Virus record (IMG/VR): IMGVR_UViG_3300029582_000367
Coordinates: 28,950-92,949 of that record
From: a virus
Taxonomy: Duplodnaviria; Heunggongvirae; Uroviricota; Caudoviricetes
Reading direction: 5' to 3' (one strand)
Length of the DNA: 64,000 bases
Made by a program: the position numbers and the translations under genes. Below are positions 2,686 to 60,823 of this stretch, in pieces. Under the pieces are notes generated by a model. The model did not search any database and was not told the DNA's origin. It saw nothing but the letters and a program-made list of their open reading frames with translations. Numbering within the stretch: position 1 is the first letter of the stretch; each line of letters starts with the position of its first letter.

Positions 2686-2960
2686 TCATAGCGGATATTC
2701 AACCTTTTTTGTGTTCCTTGTGCATAGCATGAAAGAATATACCATTCGCATTGGTAATTCTCAGGTACACACGCGAGGTCGATTCCTGCTTCGCAGACCG
2801 CGCCTCTCGCCGTGAGGCGGGAGGTCTTACCAGTCTCCACAGGCGTAACTTTCGGCTCATCCTGCCGTAGTAGGGTTTGCCGGTTACGCTGCGGTGCAGG
2901 TATCCTTTGCCTTTCTTAAAATATTGATTGCCGCATTGATGTCGCGGTCGTGGTGTGCGC
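2686..2960 (-). ncRNA. predicted omega-RNA (reRNA) of tnpB copy 1: 3' end of tnpB + right-end scaffold; guide expected just beyond ~2686
   Basis: conserved structured right end shared by both copies; by analogy with established TnpB omega-RNA architecture. Confidence 0.5.
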
Positions 2961-4002
2961 TGCATTGGGGGCAGGTCCATTCCCGAACCTTTTCATCTTT
3001 CACAGCGGCGTTCTTGTAGCCACAAGAGCTGCAGGTCTGGCTGCTGGGATAGAACCGGTCGATTTGTATGAACGTGCGTCCCGCCCACCGTGCCTTGTAC
3101 TCCAGCATCCGGAAAAACTCAGCCCAAGAGACATCAGCCACGGCCTTTGCTTTCTTGTGATTCTTGACCATCCCTTTGATGTTGAGGTCTTCCACTGCGA
3201 TGACTTGGTTCTCGTCAACGAGCTTCCGACTCAGCTTATGGGCATAGTCTCGACGCTGATTTACAACACGTTCGTGGATGGTTGCTATCTTGCGCCGCTG
3301 CTTCTCATAGTTGGAAGAACCCTTCCGCATACGAGACAGCTTGCGCTGTTCGCGGGCCAGTCGTTTCTCACTATGGATTAAGCAATGAGGGTTTTCGTAG
3401 ATGTTACCGTTATTATCGGCGGCAAATACATGAAGCCCAACGTCAATGCCGACCTCCGTGTTCAGCACCGGCAGCGGTTCAACCTCCTCTTTACAGAGAA
3501 CGGACGCCCAATACTTACCGGTGGCACTGCGGGACACTGTGATATTTACCGGAGCTCCGGTAACGGCACGTTTATCCTTACCGCGCTTTACCTTCCCAAT
3601 GGAGGGAATCTGGACAAACTTCTCGGTCACAATGACCGAGCCATCTGTGGTAAAGCTCTGCTTGGGATTCTTCCGTCCCTTGAATCTCGGATATCCCACC
3701 TTGCCTTTGCCCTTTTTGCAGCGACGGAAGAACCCGTCGTAGGCGTCACAGAGGTGCTGTACCGTAAAATCCAAGGCGTGCCGGTTACAGCTACCCAGCC
3801 AAGGCAGATATGCCTTCATCTCCGTCAGGAGTTTCTTCATACCGTAGTATGAGAGGCTTTCGCCACGGCGCCGGTATGCCTTGGACTTCCGCTCAAGGAA
3901 ATGGTTCCACACAAACCGGCAGCACCGGAAGGTGTTCTCAATCGCCGCTACCTGAGCTTCTGTGGGTTTGATGCACAGCTTGTAAGCCCTATAGATTTCC
4001 AA
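2884..4002 (-). CDS. tnpB: TnpB RNA-guided endonuclease (OrfB, RuvC-like + zinc finger CSSCGY...CPQCSAHHDRDINAAINI)
   Basis: 372 aa; C-terminal CxxC-CxxC zinc finger and DRDINAA RuvC-III-like motif typical of IS605 OrfB. Confidence 0.9.
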   Translation of the reverse strand: MEIYRAYKLCIKPTEAQVAAIENTFRCCRFVWNHFLERKSKAYRRRGESLSYYGMKKLLTEMKAYLPWLGSCNRHALDFTVQHLCDAYDGFFRRCKKGKGKVGYPRFKGRKNPKQSFTTDGSVIVTEKFVQIPSIGKVKRGKDKRAVTGAPVNITVSRSATGKYWASVLCKEEVEPLPVLNTEVGIDVGLHVFAADNNGNIYENPHCLIHSEKRLAREQRKLSRMRKGSSNYEKQRRKIATIHERVVNQRRDYAHKLSRKLVDENQVIAVEDLNIKGMVKNHKKAKAVADVSWAEFFRMLEYKARWAGRTFIQIDRFYPSSQTCSSCGYKNAAVKDEKVREWTCPQCSAHHDRDINAAINILRKAKDTCTAA

Positions 4003-4240
4003 CGCTCACACTCCTTTCTGTAGAATTATTCACTCTCCTTGCATAGACCCCACACTAAAGCTGGAATAGTCGCAGTGTCCCTCTATACGCCTTGTCTCTG
4101 AGGCAAGATTTTCAAAAAATCAACTCTCGCACGAGAGTTGTTTTTTTGCGTGCGTTTCCTGTGCTTTCCCGTGCGTTCTTGCGTGTGTTTTGCGTTAATC
4201 TTGCGGGGAACTTGCGTGGGAATGCGCGGTAGAACAGGCA

Positions 4241-8907: not shown

Positions 8908-9180
8908 TTGCTCGGATATTCAACCTTTTGTGTGTTCCTTGTGCATAGCATGAAAGAATATACCATTCGCATTGGCGATTCTCAGGTACACACGCGAGGC
9001 CGATTCCTGTTTCTCAGACCGTGCCTCTCACCGTGAGGTTCGAGGGCTTACCAGTCTCCACAGGCGTAACTTTCGGCTCATCCTGCCGTAGTAGGGTTTA
9101 CCGGTTACGCTGCGGTGCAGGTATCCTTTGCCTTTCTTAAAATATTGATTGCCGCGTTGATGTCGCGGTCGTGGTGTGCG
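8908..9180 (-). ncRNA. predicted omega-RNA of tnpB copy 2
   Basis: same conserved right-end scaffold as copy 1; flanks differ upstream of CGGATATT. Confidence 0.5.
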
Positions 9181-10223
9181 CCGCACTGGGGACAAGTCCA
9201 ATTCCGAACCTTTTCATCCTTCACAGCGGAGTTCTTGTAGCCACAGGAGCTGCAGGTCTGGCTGCTGGGATAGAACCGGTCGATTTGGATGAATGTGCGT
9301 CCCGCCCACAGTGCCTTGTATTCCAGCATCTGGAAGAACTCGGACCAAGAAACATCAGCGACAGCCTTTGCTTTCTTGTGGTTCTTGACCATGCCCTTAA
9401 TGTTGAGGTCTTCCACTGCGATGACTTGGTTCTTGTCAACGAGTTTCCGACTCAGCTTATGGGTATAGTCTCGACGCTGGTTTACAACACGCTCATGGAT
9501 GACTGCTACCTTGCGCCGCTGCTTCTCATAGTTGGAAGAACCCTTCCGCATACGGGATAGCTTGCGCTGTTCACGGGCCAGCCTCTTCTCGCTATGGATT
9601 AAGCAGTGAGGGTTCTCATAGGTGTTGCCATCACTGTCAGCGGCAAATACATGAAGCCCAACGTCAATGCCGACCTCCGTGTTTAGCACCGGCAGCGGTT
9701 CAACTTCCTCTTTACAGAGAACGGACGCCCAATACTTACCGGAGGCACTGCGGGACACCGTGACATTTACCGGAACTCCGGTAACGGCACGTTTATCCTT
9801 ACCGCGCTTTACCTTCCCAATGGAGGGAATCTGGACAAACTTCTCGGTCACAATGACCGAGCCATCTGTAGTGAAGCTCTGCTTGGGATTCTTCCGTCCC
9901 TTGAATCTCGGATATCCCACCTTGCCTTTGCCTTTTTTGCAGCGACGGAAGAACCCGTCGTAGGCGTCGCAGAGGTGCTGTATCGTATAATTCAAGGCGT
10001 GCCGGTTACAGCTACCCAGCCAAGGAAGATAGGCCTTCATCTCCGTCAGGAGCTTCTTCATACCGTAGTACGAGAGACTCTCACCACGGCGCTGGTAGGC
10101 CTTGGACTTCCGCTCAAGAAAATGGTTCCACACGAACCGGCAGCACCGAAAGGTGTTCTCTATCTCCGCTGCCTGAGCTTCTGTGGGTTTGATGCACAGC
10201 TTGTAAGCCCTGTAGATTTCCAA
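9105..10223 (-). CDS. tnpB: TnpB RNA-guided endonuclease (copy 2)
   Basis: 372 aa, ~95% aa identity to 2884-4002. Confidence 0.9.
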   Translation of the reverse strand: MEIYRAYKLCIKPTEAQAAEIENTFRCCRFVWNHFLERKSKAYQRRGESLSYYGMKKLLTEMKAYLPWLGSCNRHALNYTIQHLCDAYDGFFRRCKKGKGKVGYPRFKGRKNPKQSFTTDGSVIVTEKFVQIPSIGKVKRGKDKRAVTGVPVNVTVSRSASGKYWASVLCKEEVEPLPVLNTEVGIDVGLHVFAADSDGNTYENPHCLIHSEKRLAREQRKLSRMRKGSSNYEKQRRKVAVIHERVVNQRRDYTHKLSRKLVDKNQVIAVEDLNIKGMVKNHKKAKAVADVSWSEFFQMLEYKALWAGRTFIQIDRFYPSSQTCSSCGYKNSAVKDEKVRNWTCPQCGAHHDRDINAAINILRKAKDTCTAA

Positions 10224-10250
10224 CGCTTACACTCCTTTCTGTAAAGCTAT

Positions 10251-10946
10251 TCATTCTCCTTGCATAGACCCCACACAAAACTTTGGATAGTCTGTTGCTC
10301 CCCAATACTCCTGAGTAATCCTAACCCAGTCGTCATACTTGCCCGTAATCTGCGGTGCCGCCGTGAACGTGCTGCCTTCTGCGTGAAGTCCGGCAACACC
10401 GGAGCGAATGAGCATGAAGTCATACAGTGCCATAGTGATGGCAAACGCCTCATGCGCCCTATTACCGCCCGTGACCGCATATTCCTGCAGCGTAGTGTCA
10501 CGTGTGCATGGCTTCTCGATGAGCGCCGTGGGAATTTCACCGTTCTCACGCTCCAGAAACACCGGAATCTTTACGCCGGCATTTCCCATCCCAACGGGAT
10601 ATGCGTGGAAGATGTCGCCGCAAAAGTCCGCCGTGATGATATTGAACGGCGCCTTCTCCAGCTCCACAGCGTTGAGGTAAATACGCGCCACGGGCATCAT
10701 CTCCAACAGCAAAGCATACGGCTCAGAGATACCTTGCTTCTTATCCCTCCTCGCAGCAAAGAAACCACGGACAGGCTGCGACACAACCATCTCCCGCGTA
10801 CAGAAGACGCCGTTCGCGGCCATGGATGAGCCTGTAGGCGCATCGCTGACCGTGAAGCGGCCTACGAGAGCCTTGGAAGGCATCTCGTAGAGCTCAAACC
10901 TCACGTCACCGTCCTGCGTCATGGACGGAAGCATCCTGACGGTCAC
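10251..10946 (-). CDS. hypothetical protein; last ~13-20 codons encoded by IS copy-2 left end (probable 3' truncation by IS insertion)
   Basis: ORF stop 10251 lies inside sequence conserved with copy-1 left end (to ~10312). Confidence 0.5.
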   Translation of the reverse strand: MTVRMLPSMTQDGDVRFELYEMPSKALVGRFTVSDAPTGSSMAANGVFCTREMVVSQPVRGFFAARRDKKQGISEPYALLLEMMPVARIYLNAVELEKAPFNIITADFCGDIFHAYPVGMGNAGVKIPVFLERENGEIPTALIEKPCTRDTTLQEYAVTGGNRAHEAFAITMALYDFMLIRSGVAGLHAEGSTFTAAPQITGKYDDWVRITQEYWGATDYPKFCVGSMQGE

Positions 10947-13190: not shown

Positions 13191-13213
13191 GTTTTTCACC
13201 TCATGTTTTTGAG

Positions 13214-13317
13214 TGGTATACACAGCCCTGTTATTTCAGGGCCTTATACACCTGTGGCAACTGAGAAAACGGTGCTACTGCAGGTATACAACCCTGCTAT
13301 TTCGGGGCCTTATACAC
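13214..13317 (-). CRISPR. CRISPR-like mini-array A: 2 palindromic repeats (36-38 nt, GGTATACAaCCCTGyTATTTCgGGGcCTTATACACC) + 1 unique 30-nt spacer
   Basis: repeats 13214-13251 and 13282-13317; spacer TGTGGCAACTGAGAAAACGGTGCTACTGCA; same repeat family as arrays B, C. Confidence 0.55.
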
Positions 13318-13450
13318 CCAGCACAGGCATATTCAGTTCCCGAAAGTGCTGGTGTCAACTCTCACTTGACAAACCAGCTAACAGAGTATTCCTGCTTCCA
13401 CGACAACCATGCATCTCCACAGGCGTAAATTCCGGTCATACCGTCCGTAC
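13318..13450 (-). ncRNA. conserved ~130-nt scaffold/leader module A, homologous to TnpB right-end (omega-RNA scaffold) region
   Basis: minus strand AGTACGGACGGTATGACCGGAATTTACGCCTGTGGAGA...GAAGCAGGAAT shares exact 15-mer TTACGCCTGTGGAGA and 11-mer GAAGCAGGAAT with tnpB right ends; starts 27 nt after stop of upstream gene. Confidence 0.5.
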
Positions 13451-13476
13451 TCAATATTTTCTGCTCTCGCTTGATT

Positions 13477-13981: not shown

Positions 13982-14162
13982 GGTATACTGCCTGTCCTGA
14001 GGTATACAACCCTGTTATTTCGGGGGTTTATATACCAATCGAACCGCCATTCAGATAATCCGTAAGGTATATAACCCTGATATTTCTGGGCTCTATACGC
14101 CTGTCTCCTCAAGCGACAGATTATATGGTATACACCCCTGTCATTTCAGGGCCTCATACACC
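13982..14162 (-). CRISPR. CRISPR-like mini-array B: 3 repeats (14001-14036, 14066-14101, 14127-14162), 2 unique spacers (29, 25 nt) + degenerate distal half-repeat 13982-14000
   Basis: 36-nt interrupted-palindrome repeats, spacers unrelated to each other; degenerate repeat at scaffold-distal end as in CRISPR arrays. Confidence 0.55.
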
Positions 14163-14294
14163 CAACACAGGCATATTCAGTTCCCTAAGGTGCTGGCATC
14201 ATCTCTCACATGAAACCCAGCTAACAGAGCATTCCTGCTTCTACGATGACCATGCATCTCCACAGGCGTAAATTCCGGTTATACCATCCGTACT
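14163..14294 (-). ncRNA. conserved scaffold/leader module B (TnpB-right-end-like)
   Basis: ~90% identical to module A and C; begins 9 nt after stop of MTase gene. Confidence 0.5.
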
Positions 14295-15357: not shown

Positions 15358-15378
15358 CGCTCAGGCCACGCAACATAA

Positions 15379-15617
15379 GGTATACAACCCTGTTATTTTG
15401 GGGTTTTATACACACCGTGCGAGGGGGTGTAAGGACAACTCTATATGGTATACATCCCTGTTATTTCAGGGTATTATACGCCCCTTGCAATCCGCAGGGC
15501 GTATGCCAGTGTAAGTATAAAACCCTGTTATTTCGGGGGGCTTATACACCTGTGCCGCCTATCAGCCACTCGTCCCGTAGGAGTATACAACCCTGCTATT
15601 TCGGGGTCTTATACACC
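15379..15617 (-). CRISPR. CRISPR-like mini-array C: 4 repeats (15379-15416, 15447-15482, 15515-15550, 15583-15617), 3 unique spacers (30, 32, 32 nt)
   Basis: same 36-nt palindromic repeat family; spacers unique. Confidence 0.55.
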
Positions 15618-15750
15618 CGACACAGGCATATTCAGTTCCCTAAAGTGCTGGCATCATCTCTCACATGATTAACCAGCCAACAGAGTATTCCTGCTTCACC
15701 GACGACCATGCATCTCCACAGGCGTTAATTCCGGTTATACCGTCCGTACG
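15618..15750 (-). ncRNA. conserved scaffold/leader module C (TnpB-right-end-like)
   Basis: as modules A/B. Confidence 0.5.
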
Positions 15751-16364: not shown

Positions 16365-16447
16365 GTGTAATCCCTCCTTGGGAACAATGTATTTACCTCT
16401 TTTTGTCTGGCGTTAAATCAGAATGTATTAAATAATCTGAGGGTTGT

Positions 16448-17157: not shown

Positions 17158-17223
17158 GCGATTTACTCTCCTTTCTTACTGGAGTATTTAAGATTTGATG
17201 TGTTTTCCCACAAAACTTAATTT

Positions 17224-18708
17224 TCAGGCAGGGATAAAAACCATGCCAACATTCTTTGCGAGAAGCGCACACCTCTTTGTTAAAACCCTTGCTCCTTTCG
17301 TAGAATTGTAATAATTTGGTGTACCATTATTCCGTCCTGATGACCCCTTAAATACTCCAACAATCCCATCAAAATCCATCATCGCCCCCGGCATGATACG
17401 AGCCATGTCCTTGTACTGGGGTGAGTGAGGCCTTACGGTGAGCTGCGATACCGCAGCGTCGCCGTAAGCCTCGCGGAACTCCTCAAGACTATCGGACTTT
17501 TGCTCAATGGCCTTATGCCGGTTTGCTGCAACGACCTTGCCGTCCAGAAGGTACTTCCGGTCAACCATTTGGCGGATACAAGCCTGCCGGTCGTGCCGGC
17601 GGAGCTGCTTCAACTCAAAGGGTTCGACAGGTGCAGAGACCTTCGTATCTGCATCCAAAATGGAACAGGCGATACAGTAGGCATCCGTATAGTGTTCCTT
17701 CGGCACATTCTTGGCAATGCGGAAGCCCTTGGTGGACTTACCATCCGTGGCATAGACATCGTAGGGAGTCTCTCTTCCGAGGTATTCCATGAGGTGAGGG
17801 ATAATCTGGTTCAGCACGCTCAGGGCGTGGTACTTTTTATTCATACCGCCCTTGCGTGTGACCAGTTTTTCCGCCCACGCCTTGTCCTTGTGGACGAGGT
17901 CGTGATGCCTCGCACAGAGCCCACACCGGTTTGCCAGCGTCTCGCTCCCACCCTTATGGCGTGGGACGACATGGTGATAATGGTCAATGGGCTTCTTGCA
18001 GAACAGGCAATGTCCGTCCTGCTGTGCGTACACCGCATCCTTCACGGAGCCCAGCCCGTACAACGGTCCCTGCTGGTATTCCCATCGACGGATATTGGGA
18101 TTATCCATCGCCATGAAAGCAAAGCGGTTTAGCTCCACTACCACCTTTGTGATGGGTAGAACCTTTGCAATCTTCGCAATCAAGTTGATGTGGGTCTGCA
18201 GCAGATGGTTCGCCGTAGGTGTCAACCAACCCACAGGGCGGCTGCGGTTATTGAACCGCGCCTCCTTATTGCGGATGTAATGACACACAACGGGCTTCTC
18301 GTAGCCGGGGAGCAATCTCTCGATGGTGTTGCTTTCCACGGTAGTCCCAGCAGCTATCGCACGACGCTGGCGCTTCCTGCGCCGGTCCTGTGTGCGATGG
18401 TTTCTCCGAAACGCAGCACGCTTCTTCATCAAGAGAGGTACTTCCTTGTTGCGGGTCTCCAAATGTGCGGAGAACACGCAGGAGCCGTCCTCCTTGACGA
18501 CAGCAACGCCAATATTCGTCCTGCCGGGGTCAATGCCAAAAATCAGGTCTTGGGTGATGTCAGGGGTATCATAGTTCAACTGGATGGTAAACGGGGTGGT
18601 ACAAACAACTCGTGCTTTCTTTTCCTTCAGGAGAAGGCGCACATAGCAATATCGAGTTGTCGGCATCAAAGGTTTACCGTCTTTGTTTTGCACATAGACC
18701 ATTGTCAT
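17224..18708 (-). CDS. iscB: IscB OMEGA RNA-guided nuclease (PLMP domain + RuvC-I/II/III + HNH)
   Basis: N-terminal KPLMPT (PLMP), GIDPGRTNIGVAV (RuvC-I), HNH CLFCKKPIDHYHHVVPRHKGGSETLANRCGLCARHHDLVH, RuvC-III EHYTDAYCIA; 494 aa; GGAGATGAG RBS. Confidence 0.85.
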   Translation of the reverse strand: MTMVYVQNKDGKPLMPTTRYCYVRLLLKEKKARVVCTTPFTIQLNYDTPDITQDLIFGIDPGRTNIGVAVVKEDGSCVFSAHLETRNKEVPLLMKKRAAFRRNHRTQDRRRKRQRRAIAAGTTVESNTIERLLPGYEKPVVCHYIRNKEARFNNRSRPVGWLTPTANHLLQTHINLIAKIAKVLPITKVVVELNRFAFMAMDNPNIRRWEYQQGPLYGLGSVKDAVYAQQDGHCLFCKKPIDHYHHVVPRHKGGSETLANRCGLCARHHDLVHKDKAWAEKLVTRKGGMNKKYHALSVLNQIIPHLMEYLGRETPYDVYATDGKSTKGFRIAKNVPKEHYTDAYCIACSILDADTKVSAPVEPFELKQLRRHDRQACIRQMVDRKYLLDGKVVAANRHKAIEQKSDSLEEFREAYGDAAVSQLTVRPHSPQYKDMARIMPGAMMDFDGIVGVFKGSSGRNNGTPNYYNSTKGARVLTKRCALLAKNVGMVFIPA

Positions 18709-19025
18709 GTGCGCTCATCTCCTTTCAGTAGTGTCTCGCCTCCAGAGGAGGCGGTAGTGTCTCCCTTACCTCGGCGTATGCTTGGCAGAGCTGCGAGCTG
18801 GGAAAACCCGCAGGTGCGTCCGTTCCCTCTACCTGAGGTGCTTACATACGTCGGTGTGGCTGTGGCTATAAGACTTTTTGTGGGTTCTCCACATCAAATC
18901 TAAAATAGCCCAATGGCACATTGAACTTATGGTTACGGAACATATCACAACGGAGGGTGTTGCAGTCTTTTTTTGGCAAAAGAAATGGTCCAAATCTCAT
19001 CACGGCAAAAGCACCCGCGCCCTAT
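18709..19025 (-). ncRNA. predicted IscB omega-RNA (5' guide + scaffold) immediately upstream of iscB
   Basis: ~315-nt non-coding, hairpin-rich region between a copy of the shared promoter (19026-19062) and iscB start; established IscB locus architecture. Confidence 0.5.
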
Positions 19026-19062
19026 AGTTCTATACTACCACAGTTTGATATTTTGTCAAGTC
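19026..19062 (-). promoter_or_regulatory. promoter-only copy of the shared module (TTGACAAAATATCAAACTGTGGTAGTATAGAAc) driving omega-RNA/iscB
   Basis: 33/34 identity to promoter portion of modules M1-M6, lacks the leader/attenuator part. Confidence 0.6.
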
Positions 19063-21238: not shown

Positions 21239-21582
21239 ATGAGATTCTCCTTGTTGAAAAGATTTGCTTTGGGTAAAGGAAGCGTGTGGCTTGGGCTGTC
21301 GTGCAGGGGTGCTGGCTGAAGGAGCAGGTATCTCAGGTAGAGGACGAGGCTCCGCTGCGAAGCGATGCCTGCCACTCCTACCTGAAATCCGTCTCAGGGC
21401 CCGCAGGCGCGTCCTGAAGGCTGTCGGCCATGATGGGACATACCCCACACATCTCAAGCCCCGTGAGCAAGCTCACAGGAGGCACGGATGAAGGGGGAAT
21501 CGCATCCCGTTGCAAGTCAGAAACCGTATATAGCAGTAAACTTCAACGCTGGCATCCAACCCACAGCAGAAGAAAAGACTAC

Positions 21583-44087: not shown

Positions 44088-44274
44088 CCCAGCCTGTAAT
44101 AAGGACTTACGGGAATCCAAAAAATGTTATATATAGAAAAAGACAGTCACTTCCCAGAAAAGGGAAGTAACTGTCTTGATTCTTTGTGGTGACTTGAAAA
44201 CGGAGATAATCTCCTTTATAAAAATAGCTTCGTAATTATAATTCTATACTACCACAGTTTGATATTTTGTCAAT
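44088..44274 (-). promoter_or_regulatory. promoter-leader module M3 (terminator hairpin with compensatory changes)
   Basis: hairpin AAGACAGTCACTTCCC-AGAAAA-GGGAAGTAACTGTCTT differs from M1 at paired positions. Confidence 0.7.
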
Positions 44275-44286
44275 CGCTTTTGCCGT

Positions 44287-44351: not shown

Positions 44352-45404
44352 TCAAAGGATTTTTGCTCGGACGGTATAGGTGAACGGAGCGACACCATCA
44401 TCCGAACTCGCATCCCACACTTCATGGATTTCGTCGATGGGTACACCTGCCACACGACGCCAAGCGACGTCATCGGCGAAACCATCAATCATCGGAATGT
44501 CCTCCAGAAGCGCATCAAGCGCACCGTCTTGGCGCAAGTCAATGTACTTCGGATTGAGCATAACTGCTCCCTCAGAGAGCAGCATACGCGCCCAGAGCTG
44601 GTATTCCAGCGACCAACGGGACGTTTCCGTCGGCAGGTCGCCATACAGCTCATCCAGTTTCCGCAGGATGGAAGCGCAAATCACACAACCTTCAGGATGT
44701 CCGTGATGCGTACCGAGATACGGCAGCTTTGCAAAGAACAGAGGATTCCCAGAATACTCATCTTCCGCATAGGCGTAAAACGTCAGCTTCATGTCTGCCG
44801 CCGCGAAGAACCGGTCGGGAAGGATATCCTTCACTTTACAGTTGCTCCAGACGACATCATCCGAAAGGAATCTGAAGCCAAGAGGCTCCGTTCTTTCCGG
44901 TGTGAGGTACTTCCACGCCATATGGCGAACGAGGGCAACGAGCCCCAGCTCATGCCGCAGCATCGGCACATCGTCAAAGATTCTGCGGATGTTTGCCCGC
45001 AGCTTCTCTTCGCTTCGTTCCACGCACTCGAAAAAGAGCTTACAGGACGACCCGTTCGTGAACACAACGCTCAGTGTCACGAGCCAAGGTGCGAAATCGT
45101 CGGGCTTCAGAATGTAATCTTTCTGCCCAGTGCAGGCGACCGGCACAAACCAACCACCCGCCTTAGCCTCGTTATACGAAGCGTCTTCCGCAGCATAGGC
45201 GGTTGTTCTGAAGGCATCGTCGGTGTCCTTATCAGGAATATCAATGGCATCGCCCATGCAAATGTACTTGAAGGGAACGTACATTTCCACCTCTCTGACG
45301 CCGTCGCCATCTGCGTCATCCGTATCATGGCAGTAGCGCACGATGTGGACCAGTACGTTCTCGTCGCAGTGCAGCTTTCGCTTGTTCGAAATCGGCATAT
45401 CCAT
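44352..45404 (-). CDS. hypothetical protein, tandem paralog 1
   Basis: shares DFAPY(I/L)(I/V)(S/T)LSV, LEYQLWARMLL(A/S)EGAVMLNPK, AYA(E/Y)(D/S)(E/G)YS motifs with next gene. Confidence 0.55.
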   Translation of the reverse strand: MDMPISNKRKLHCDENVLVHIVRYCHDTDDADGDGVREVEMYVPFKYICMGDAIDIPDKDTDDAFRTTAYAAEDASYNEAKAGGWFVPVACTGQKDYILKPDDFAPWLVTLSVVFTNGSSCKLFFECVERSEEKLRANIRRIFDDVPMLRHELGLVALVRHMAWKYLTPERTEPLGFRFLSDDVVWSNCKVKDILPDRFFAAADMKLTFYAYAEDEYSGNPLFFAKLPYLGTHHGHPEGCVICASILRKLDELYGDLPTETSRWSLEYQLWARMLLSEGAVMLNPKYIDLRQDGALDALLEDIPMIDGFADDVAWRRVAGVPIDEIHEVWDASSDDGVAPFTYTVRAKIL

Positions 45405-49402: not shown

Positions 49403-49436
49403 GGTGTTTCTCCTTTCTTTGTTGTCGAAAAATGCA

Positions 49437-49580
49437 ATAAATATATAAAAAAAGACAGCTACCCCAAGATTGGGATAACTGTCTGAATTTATGTGGTGAC
49501 TTGAAAACGGAGATAATCTCCTTTATAAAAATAGCTTCGTAATTATAATTCTATACTACCACAGTTTGATATTTTGTCAA
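49437..49580 (-). promoter_or_regulatory. promoter-leader module M4 (shorter gene-proximal part)
   Basis: same promoter/hairpin family. Confidence 0.7.
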
Positions 49581-49628
49581 TCGTTTTAGGTATCAAATTG
49601 CGTTTACTCTATTTGCACTGTTTTTTGA

Positions 49629-55479: not shown

Positions 55480-55664
55480 CCTGCCTATGATAAGGACTTA
55501 TGGGAACACAAATGTATGAAAATATATAAAAAAGACAGCTATCCCCGAAATGGGATAACTGTCTGAATTTACGTATGGTGACTTGGAAAACGGAGATAAT
55601 CTCCTTTATAAAAATAGCTTCGTAATTATAATTCTATACTACCACAGTTTGATATTTTGTCAAT
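55480..55664 (-). promoter_or_regulatory. promoter-leader module M5
   Basis: same family. Confidence 0.7.
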
Positions 55665-55676
55665 GATTCTGTTGGT

Positions 55677-60635: not shown

Positions 60636-60818
60636 CCCAGCCTTGAAGGACTTACGGGAACACAAAAATGTATGTATATATATAAAAAAAGACAGCCATC
60701 CCAAGATTGGGATAACTGTCTTGATTCTTTATGGTGACTTGAAAACGGAGATAATCTCCTTTATAAAAATAGCTTCGTAATTATAATTCTATACTACCAC
60801 AGTTTGATATTTTGTCAA
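60636..60818 (-). promoter_or_regulatory. promoter-leader module M6
   Basis: same family. Confidence 0.7.
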
Positions 60819-60823
60819 CGTTT

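Follow-up and report, generated by a model that had tools for sequence, protein, structure and literature searches.

The IscB locus

A candidate RNA-guided nuclease of the IscB family, and the mobile element that carries it, were examined in a stretch of 64,000 nucleotides (nt) of viral DNA (Caudoviricetes; IMG/VR record IMGVR_UViG_3300029582_000367, positions 28,950 to 92,949), hereafter the window. The replicon is called a phage on its IMG/VR classification, because a PHROGs search with 10 open reading frames (ORFs) of the window returned no match. A first-pass annotation of the window, made from the letters alone, had placed at positions 17224-19062 an IscB gene with an omega RNA under a promoter shared with other transcription units of the region. 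Loci and contigs used for comparison are designated by L numbers. The following features were identified at the locus, all on the minus strand and listed in the direction of transcription.

19023..19062, minus: shared sigma-70-type promoter module, in phage DNA outside the mobile element
18927..19025, minus: phage leader of ~99 nt from the predicted transcription start to the guide, which would give the primary transcript a 5' extension
18911..18926, minus: predicted guide GTTCAATGTGCCATTG, 16 nt of flanking phage DNA, with its boundary taken from a multi-copy alignment
18709..18910, minus: omega RNA scaffold, 202 nt, kept in more than 25 copies and overlapping the iscB ribosome-binding site
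18890..18910, minus: left terminal inverted repeat GGCTATTTTAGATTTGATGTG, doubling as the 5' arm of the guide-adaptor hairpin
18910-18864, minus: guide-adaptor hairpin, the first hairpin of the scaffold
18802-18800, minus: loop CCC of the nexus pseudoknot hairpin, with predicted pairing to GGG at 18765-18763
17224..18708, minus: iscB ORF, 494 aa, with an ATG start and every catalytic motif intact
17182..17223, minus: right end of the element, the exact end being fixed by the sibling contig L290
17202-17182, minus: right terminal inverted repeat CACATCAAATCTTAAATACTC
17181..17182, minus: deletion junction, with 4.9 kb and the right duplication copy gone relative to L290 and L014

The iscB start codon is preceded, at a distance of 8 nt, by an AAAGGAG ribosome-binding site. 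The 494-aa protein matched the NCBIfam model NF040563 (guided_IscB) with 230.9 bits (cut-off 175) and Pfam RRXRR at 1.4e-49, and it aligned end to end with the structures of OgeuIscB (E ~1e-193, ~60% identity). The motif KPLMP occupies residues 12-16. RuvC-I (GIDPG), RuvC-II (VVVELN), RuvC-III (EHYTDAY) and the HNH motif (DHYHHVVPR...N...HH..VH) match OgeuIscB residue for residue in the alignment, and the aspartate of RuvC-I, the glutamate of RuvC-II, the histidines and asparagine of HNH and the H..D of RuvC-III are all kept. By profile and alignment, the ORF is a genuine, intact IscB of the OgeuIscB clade, a known family, and RNA-guided DNA cleavage dependent on a target-adjacent motif (TAM) is its predicted activity. 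The first-pass assignment to IscB is thus upheld by a profile score above the NCBIfam cut-off and by the alignment of all motifs to OgeuIscB, and the ORF was seen to have the PLMP, RuvC and HNH architecture that had been described for it. A type II Cas9 identity was rejected, as the Cas9 and Cas9d models scored 19-30 bits against cut-offs of 100-375 and the protein has merely 494 aa. CRISPR-like mini-arrays do lie at 13.2-15.7 kb, more than 1.4 kb from the IscB element, with a repeat that by eye is unlike the first hairpin of the omega RNA. A BLAST search of GenBank phages gave no match.

The omega RNA and its guide

The extent of the RNA was determined by comparison among copies. Viral contigs yielded 27 IscB-encoding loci, with proteins 59-95% identical to that of the window (nearly all 81-95%), and related contigs of 180-190 kb often carried two or three such loci each. 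The 440 nt upstream of each iscB start codon in the copies from viral contigs were aligned, and more distant relatives were found by exact-protein look-up. The copies are alike from GGCTATTTAAGATTTGATGTGGG (window position 18910) onward and unrelated upstream of that point. With the onset of conservation among the copies at 18910, the scaffold is placed at 18910-18709 and not over 315 nt, and because the scaffold begins there, the guide is placed at 18926-18911 and not at 19000-19025; its length of 16 nt is borrowed from OgeuIscB (PMC9640706). The non-coding stretch of ~315 nt that the first-pass annotation had reported is real, as the distance from the start codon to the -10 hexamer is ~317 nt, and a structured RNA does lie within it. 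Its full length had been taken, from the promoter onward, as the omega RNA, however, and this part was not sustained, nor was the guide at 19000-19025, since the predicted guide lies ~80-100 nt further downstream. The last 9 nt of the guide, GTGCCATTG (18919-18911), are the left copy of a target-site duplication, and the guide matches a single place in the window. A weak terminator-like hairpin at 18907-18927 (minus), AGTTCAATG/CATTGGGCT followed by ATTTTAGATT, forms from the guide together with the initial bases of the element, and it might keep the guide hidden within the primary transcript.

The consensus structure obtained with RNAalifold from 15 sequences, distant relatives included, has compensatory changes at 14 of its 25 pairs. 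The first 42-48 nt form a hairpin in seven families of differing sequence (z = -2.1 to -6.5), with z = -5.4 for the guide-adaptor hairpin of the window. The stretch had been described as rich in hairpins, which holds for that first hairpin and for the proximal 218 nt formed by guide and scaffold (fold z = -2.8) but not for the whole 336 nt (z = -1.19). The scaffold also contains nexus stems, central stems and a terminal hairpin. At L174, where the protein shares 87% identity with the OgeuIscB sequence of the PDB, the pseudoknot C93-C96/G155-G158 could be counted exactly at the positions published for the OgeuIscB omega RNA, and because of this exact register the RNA is taken to be an omega RNA of the OgeuIscB type in which G1 is the first conserved base. 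The RNA of the window family lacks stem-loop 3, which in OgeuIscB makes no contact with the protein (PMC9640706), and its stem-loop 2 is longer than that of OgeuIscB. A covariance-model search had been proposed as a check and was run with Rfam HEARO (RF02033), which found no match in the window at gathering thresholds or in the upstream 800 nt at E <= 10. This negative is uninformative for the window, because the same model gave no match to OgeuIscB-like loci at E <= 1 and thus does not cover the OgeuIscB clade.

Element ends and target-site duplications

The element spans 18910-17182 (minus), or 1,729 base pairs (bp). Beyond the iscB stop codon, conservation among copies runs for ~42 nt and closes at ...CACATCAAATCTTAAATNNCC, the reverse complement of the left end. 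The terminal inverted repeats measure ~21 nt, the similarity between left and right reaching ~38 nt, and the inverted repeat and the omega RNA scaffold start at the same base. Inverted ends were present in every full copy examined, and they begin with GG in all families. Several families have end sequences of their own, as follows.

L067: end sequence GGGTATTTGCGAAAATAGGTGGTT
L073: end sequence GGGCTTnnTAACTTTCCGTGTG
L024, L170 and L174: end sequence GGCTCTTCCAACTTnnTGGTTG
L168 and L169: each with its own matching pair of ends

Because families with differing ends still match from left to right, the inverted repeats evidently evolve together. Many copies are flanked by direct repeats, and for seven insertions the uninterrupted site was found in another genome; comparison with the empty sites gave flank overlaps of 9, 9, 9, 9, 9 and 8 bp. 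Among all fetched loci, duplications of 8-9 bp and of unrelated sequence were found at 12 independent insertions, with no conserved target motif at the insertion sites. The OgeuIscB-like families have 8-bp duplications (TTTTTGAG, ACCTACCG, ATATTAGG, GTTTAATA and CTAAAACG). Four of these empty sites lie in the window itself, and they are occupied in L002, L006, L016 and L014.

44357-44382, minus: unoccupied target site
21371-21395, minus: unoccupied target site
35417-35434, plus: unoccupied target site
16421-16439, minus: unoccupied target site

Because these sites are empty in the window while those of its relatives are filled, the insertion is polymorphic in this phage group. An internally deleted element of 331 bp (L190:6750-7080) has retained both inverted ends, the whole omega RNA and ~100 nt of the 3' end of iscB, and it is flanked by the 9-bp duplication TTAGTCTTC; judged by this content, it is a natural stand-alone guide-RNA element.

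History of the window copy

The window copy itself has no target duplication. The exact-protein look-up found two sibling contigs, of which L289 (164.7 kb) has an arrangement identical to that of the window. The other, L290, encodes an identical protein and has the same left junction, and its right side reads ...AAATACTC / GTGCCATTG / AAAAAAGTTTCGC..., which places GTGCCATTG on both sides of the element, followed by the 4.9 kb known from the insertion-free phage. L014 is the matching empty allele. From these three alleles, the order of events was derived as an empty site (L014), insertion with a 9-bp duplication (L290), and deletion of 4.9 kb (window and L289). The deletion has its start exactly at the element's right end, and deletions that start with such precision at an element end are typical of intramolecular transposition by DDE enzymes.

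Probable transcription from a shared phage promoter

The promoter module upstream of the element consists of a -35 hexamer TTGACA (19059-19054), a 16-nt spacer and a TG-extended -10 hexamer TAGTAT (19037-19032), with a predicted transcription start at ~19025. It is one of seven copies of a 40-nt unit in the window (95% identity), and its TTGACA-16 nt-TG-TAGTAT core is identical to that of five other copies. The conserved leader seen behind five other promoter copies is missing at 19023-19062, and the earlier description of a promoter-only copy is therefore accurate. The promoter lies ~115 nt outside the IscB element, is the nearest one upstream, and is separated from the element by no gene. 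The sequence behind it (18927..19025) is collinear with positions 1-77 of L014 and with L006 up to the insertion point, and in the related phage (L006/L014/L049) the same promoter and leader continue uninterrupted into 4.9 kb of other genes. The sequence at 19025-18911 shows no conservation in other IscB copies; elsewhere the element lies behind coding sequence, just past a start codon, or ahead of a copy of the promoter. IscB guide RNAs depend on external transcription, and most insertions point in the same direction as the genes upstream of them (bioRxiv 10.1101/2023.03.14.532601). The shared promoter most probably drives the omega RNA of the window copy, owing to the place where the element landed. 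Because the promoter is phage DNA that is present without the insertion, its link to the regulatory circuit of the island is incidental, and the tie between omega RNA expression and that circuit suggested earlier reflects the landing site of this copy rather than a built-in feature, as promoter and leader are also present in the insertion-free L014 and L006.

Five further copies of the module are followed by a leader.

207-366, minus: promoter and leader
44117-44276, minus: promoter and leader
49424-49583, minus: promoter and leader
55507-55666, minus: promoter and leader
60662-60821, minus: promoter and leader

The leader of these copies is conserved over ~115 nt, contains a small hairpin GGAGATTATCTCC, and closes with a terminator-like hairpin AGACAGTTATCCCA..TGGGATAGCTGTC and a run of T. 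Repeated ahead of several operons, it resembles either a gene for a small RNA or an attenuator of transcription.

A non-autonomous element predicted to home on empty alleles

Taken together, the locus is probably a non-autonomous insertion sequence of 1,729 bp with an intact IscB/omega RNA module, inserted in a phage leader, mobilised in trans by a DDE-type transposase, and homing on the empty allele. As the three alleles show, the element inserted, with the 9-bp duplication GTGCCATTG, into a transcribed leader ~115 nt downstream of a phage promoter. Under this proposal, read-through would then proceed from 99 nt of leader through the 16-nt guide, the scaffold and iscB into the downstream phage genes. 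The complex of IscB and scaffold would recognise DNA that matches the guide and is followed by an NNRR-type TAM, and the insertion-free allele (target plus AAAA) would be cut in related phages. During co-infection, the element would be copied across or the rival phage excluded.

OgeuIscB requires ~14-16 matched bases and an NNRR TAM, recognised through main-chain atoms of G461 and R462 (PMC9640706). The window IscB has kept both residues. The target is followed by GGCT at the occupied locus and by AAAA in the insertion-free allele, and the second duplication copy in L290 matches just 9 of the 16 guide bases. Because GGCT is not a TAM, the occupied locus would be immune; from the two motifs and the 9/16 match, the complex is predicted to spare its own genome and to cut insertion-free relatives. 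A search for the target of the guide, as had been suggested, thus did return a match with AAAA in the insertion-free allele of a related phage, though with the guide at 18926-18911 and not where the first-pass annotation had put it. Among 51 distinct right flanks, 34 (67%) have NNRR just after the duplication, compared with ~30-45% at other offsets.

Proposed mobilisation in trans

The combination of inverted ends with a duplication of fixed size points to a DDE-type transposase acting in trans, and TnpB elements associated with DDE transposases and having symmetrical ends are known (PMC10691335). The element is probably moved by such an enzyme, possibly one of the ISL3 family, which is the leading candidate. 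ISL3 elements have inverted ends of 15-39 bp that start with GG and make an 8-bp duplication, and the published ISL3 ends GGCTCTTCGCGGTTGGTGGTGAAT (PMC6305408) and GGGTATACGGATTTAATGGTTGAT (PMC7643977) were compared with the ends of the IscB elements. The ends of the OgeuIscB family agree with ISL3 ends at 14-16 of 24 positions in register, and shuffled sequences scored as well in 5-33 of 2000 cases against the right inverted repeat (IRR) and in 25-120 against the left inverted repeat (IRL).

The transposase itself was sought by scanning viral contigs, species-representative genomes and metagenomes for the 17-21-nt end sequence. The genome scan gave 93 matches where ~69 were expected, almost all of them chance, and a scan of the viral contigs with the OgeuIscB-family end returned the contig of L024 alone. 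Two candidates were rejected as transposons: L118 (Dysosmobacter segnis), the one genuine match of the genome scan, is a solitary end remnant with variable left flanks, and the end match at L186/L242 is a chance one in ORF-free DNA. More tentatively than for the window copy, we suggest that the whole OgeuIscB clade, including relatives of the IscB favoured most in genome editing, could be a passenger not on IS200/IS605 elements but on transposons with inverted ends and 8-9-bp duplications, moved in trans by an ISL3-like DDE transposase, and that together with TnpB elements of related repeat it spreads between co-infecting gut phages by cutting the empty allele. If true, this would explain the rarity of IscB beside TnpA.

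A number of observations weigh against mobilisation in trans and homing. With regard to the transposase, Pfam searches of the 20 largest ORFs in the window identified none other than TnpB, and the end-sequence scans gave IscB copies, remnants and chance matches but no transposase with matching ends. The ends of the window family compare with ISL3 ends no better than shuffled controls, and that family makes duplications of 9 bp where ISL3 typically makes 8 bp. Some insertions deviate, with a 5-bp overlap at L014, a 5-bp loss at L020, and 7 extra nt at the right junction of L006, one of the 9-bp cases. With regard to targeting, the TAM is assumed from a homolog of 60% identity, and the TAM-contact residues H380, K381 and E460 are replaced in the window IscB (by I, R and S). 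The enrichment of NNRR is suggestive only, and not proof, because the signal is widely spread and falls together with ribosome-binding sites. The start of transcription, the guide length and any 5' trimming of the 99-nt leader are predictions, and the window copy, having lost its right-hand duplication, may no longer be mobile.

Alternative explanations

If the ends were relics, the locus could be a domesticated, immobile phage gene that serves as a fixed-guide weapon against related phages or the host. This is unlikely, although it survives better than the other alternatives: the window copy has no right-hand duplication and is located in an operon that follows a phage promoter, its guide matches a rival allele with a compatible TAM, and the relatives L066 and L173 have lost the right end altogether. 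Against it, both ends of the window copy are intact, and close relatives carry two or three copies at differing polymorphic sites with fresh duplications, which argues for recent movement. It also overlaps the homing part of the mobile-element proposal rather than excluding that proposal.

Even less probable is a canonical ISC or IS200/IS605 element whose movement would be the single-strand 'peel and paste' of a Y1 TnpA. This is the sole transposon context given for IscB in the accessible literature (PMC4810608, PMC10691335, PMC13565253), and the ends of the element do contain hairpins. Elements of the ISC and IS200/IS605 groups, however, are without inverted ends and insert into a fixed target of 4-5 bp that is not duplicated (PMC4810608). 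The IscB element was examined for these three traits and has none of them: its ends are inverted repeats of 21-38 nt, empty sites prove duplications of 8-9 bp, and the target is not conserved. Nor is there a TnpA nearby, as no Y1 TnpA domain was found in the gene tables of the relatives' loci or among the 20 largest ORFs of the window.

We give hardly any credence to a model in which the promoter belongs to the element and drives an RNA of ~315 nt whose first ~16-25 nt (19000-19025) are the guide: a real promoter does lie directly upstream with no intervening gene, and the distant relative L171 has a consensus promoter ~190 nt upstream of its start codon, but the region 19025-18911 is unconserved among copies and ordinary phage DNA in the insertion-free allele, and the boundary data contradict the model in that the scaffold homologous to OgeuIscB begins at 18910. 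An equally faint prospect is self-mobilisation, in which IscB (with an RuvC of RNase-H fold and an HNH) would make the staggered breaks for insertion while its RNA recognises the ends; the failure to find a transposase, the left repeat that forms an arm of the first RNA hairpin and is complementary to the right end, the somewhat irregular duplication lengths and the NNRR enriched just after the duplication would fit it, but the guide can match a new site only once the insertion is done, the duplication directly abuts the putative TAM while the IscB cut in the target strand falls ~3 nt upstream of the TAM, ribosome-binding sites confound the NNRR enrichment, and we know of no precedent. Mobilisation in trans by a DDE-type transposase thus remains the preferred reading.

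Neighbouring elements and remnants

Two TnpB elements of 1,378 bp each lie in the same part of the window.

2692-4071, minus: TnpB element
8913-10292, minus: TnpB element

The two TnpB genes of the first-pass annotation are accounted for by an ORF at 2884-4002, identified by Pfam, and one at 9105-10223 that is 94% identical to it at the protein level. By eye, the elements end in inverted repeats, GACTATTCCAGCTTTAGTGTGGGG against the reverse complement GGATATTCAACCTTTTTTGTGT, which resemble the end of the IscB element at ~17 of 23 positions, and the copy at 8913-10292 lies between two copies of GAGCAACAG, which makes a duplication of 7-9 bp. These features suggest that one transposase moves both the TnpB and the IscB elements. 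Closer to the IscB element are the three CRISPR-like mini-arrays.

13212-13453, read on minus: mini-array
13996-14294, read on minus: mini-array
15374-15750, read on minus: mini-array

Each has a conserved scaffold of ~130-170 nt followed by two to four units of a partly palindromic 35-36-nt repeat, GGTGTATAAGACCCCGAAATAGCAGGGTTGTATAC, with unique spacers of ~31-32 nt. The scaffold occurs three or four times per locus in related phages, and a weak 37-nt match to it lies just 3' of the TnpB stop codon. The mini-arrays may be TnpB-type scaffolds with multi-guide arrays. The sole Rfam match in the window is a tRNA gene with a long variable arm at 32558-32643 (plus; tRNA model, 59.7 bits).

Solitary guide-adaptor hairpins of ~47 nt were found at six further places.

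L031:769, minus: solitary guide-adaptor hairpin
L035:458, plus: solitary guide-adaptor hairpin
L064:1065, plus: solitary guide-adaptor hairpin
L214:4521, plus: solitary guide-adaptor hairpin
L061:1151, minus: solitary guide-adaptor hairpin
L062:4322, minus: solitary guide-adaptor hairpin

These have no IscB, no remaining scaffold and no duplication, and several are situated shortly upstream of a shared-promoter copy; they would be what is left of deleted elements, or else minimal palindromic derivatives. At L256:9180-9200, the site filled by the element in L011, just the last ~20 nt of the right end are present, joined to the left flank by CACAC microhomology, and to judge by this junction the element is lost there by deletion, not excision. 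Two relatives look immobilised. L171:1300-1500 has no recognisable ends, and its consensus promoter is TTGACA..TATTATAAT, ~190 nt upstream of iscB, whereas L173:1218-2705 has a left end but no right end, its stop codon overlapping a helicase gene. The protein of L173 (91%) is the closest to PDB OgeuIscB among the homologs listed. Finally, a solitary 24-nt end, GGCTATTTAAGATTTGATGTGGAA, occurs at L118:7043-7066 (Dysosmobacter segnis) and at ~45 human-gut metagenome loci, downstream of a gene for a 3,090-aa S-layer-homology protein and with three differing left flanks, which hints at Oscillospiraceae as hosts and at the remnant as a point of rearrangement.

Comparison with known systems

The IscB and omega RNA of the window form an ordinary member of their family, and it is their context that matters. 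The protein has the same layout of PLMP, RuvC, bridge helix, HNH and TAM-interaction parts as OgeuIscB (PDB 7XHT, 7UTN and 8CSZ; Kato 2022, PMC9640706), and the RNA has the same guide-adaptor hairpin, nexus and central stems, pseudoknot hairpin and terminal hairpin. In contrast to OgeuIscB, the system is seen here in a natural context, in a large putative phage and in multiple polymorphic copies.

With ISC and IS200/IS605 elements (Kapitonov 2016, PMC4810608; Meers 2023 preprint), the element shares its non-autonomous nature, its single IscB gene, a guide that lies just outside the end of the element, a need for outside transcription, and an orientation that follows upstream genes. In those elements the 4-5-bp target doubles as the TAM, whereas the window element has no fixed target and has inverted ends and duplications. 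The coupling of IS200/IS605 and IscB lies in the reading of the same motif by transposase and nuclease, with scarless excision creating the target of the nuclease. The inverted ends and duplications in the clade of the window, close relatives of OgeuIscB included, break this supposed coupling. They call for another transposase, and homing from one co-infecting phage genome to another is proposed as the reason for keeping the nuclease.

Closer in transposon architecture are the DDE-associated TnpB elements (Altae-Tran 2023, PMC10691335), in which an OMEGA nuclease is likewise carried on a symmetrical-ended transposon; these differ in that the nuclease is TnpB, not IscB, and in that some copies contain a transposase gene. 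For IscB, such ends and duplications were not found described in the accessible literature, a 2026 review included (PMC13565253), although they may have been noticed earlier. ISL3 elements with passengers (CLJ-ISL3/ISPst2 and ISArsp7; PMC7643977, PMC6305408) have, as here, ends of ~24 nt starting with GG(G/C)T and tolerate passenger genes, and the OgeuIscB families resemble them in TGGT(T/G) at end positions 17-21 and in the 8-bp duplication.

In its predicted role, the window IscB would act as the free-standing homing endonucleases of phages do (PMC13565253), by cutting the element-free allele of a co-infecting relative. The natural trio of empty, occupied, and occupied and deleted alleles, with a defined guide, target and predicted TAM, makes this role testable. 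In contrast to homing endonucleases, the specificity of IscB would come from an RNA drawn from the flank of the insertion, and each insertion would thus retarget the nuclease automatically.

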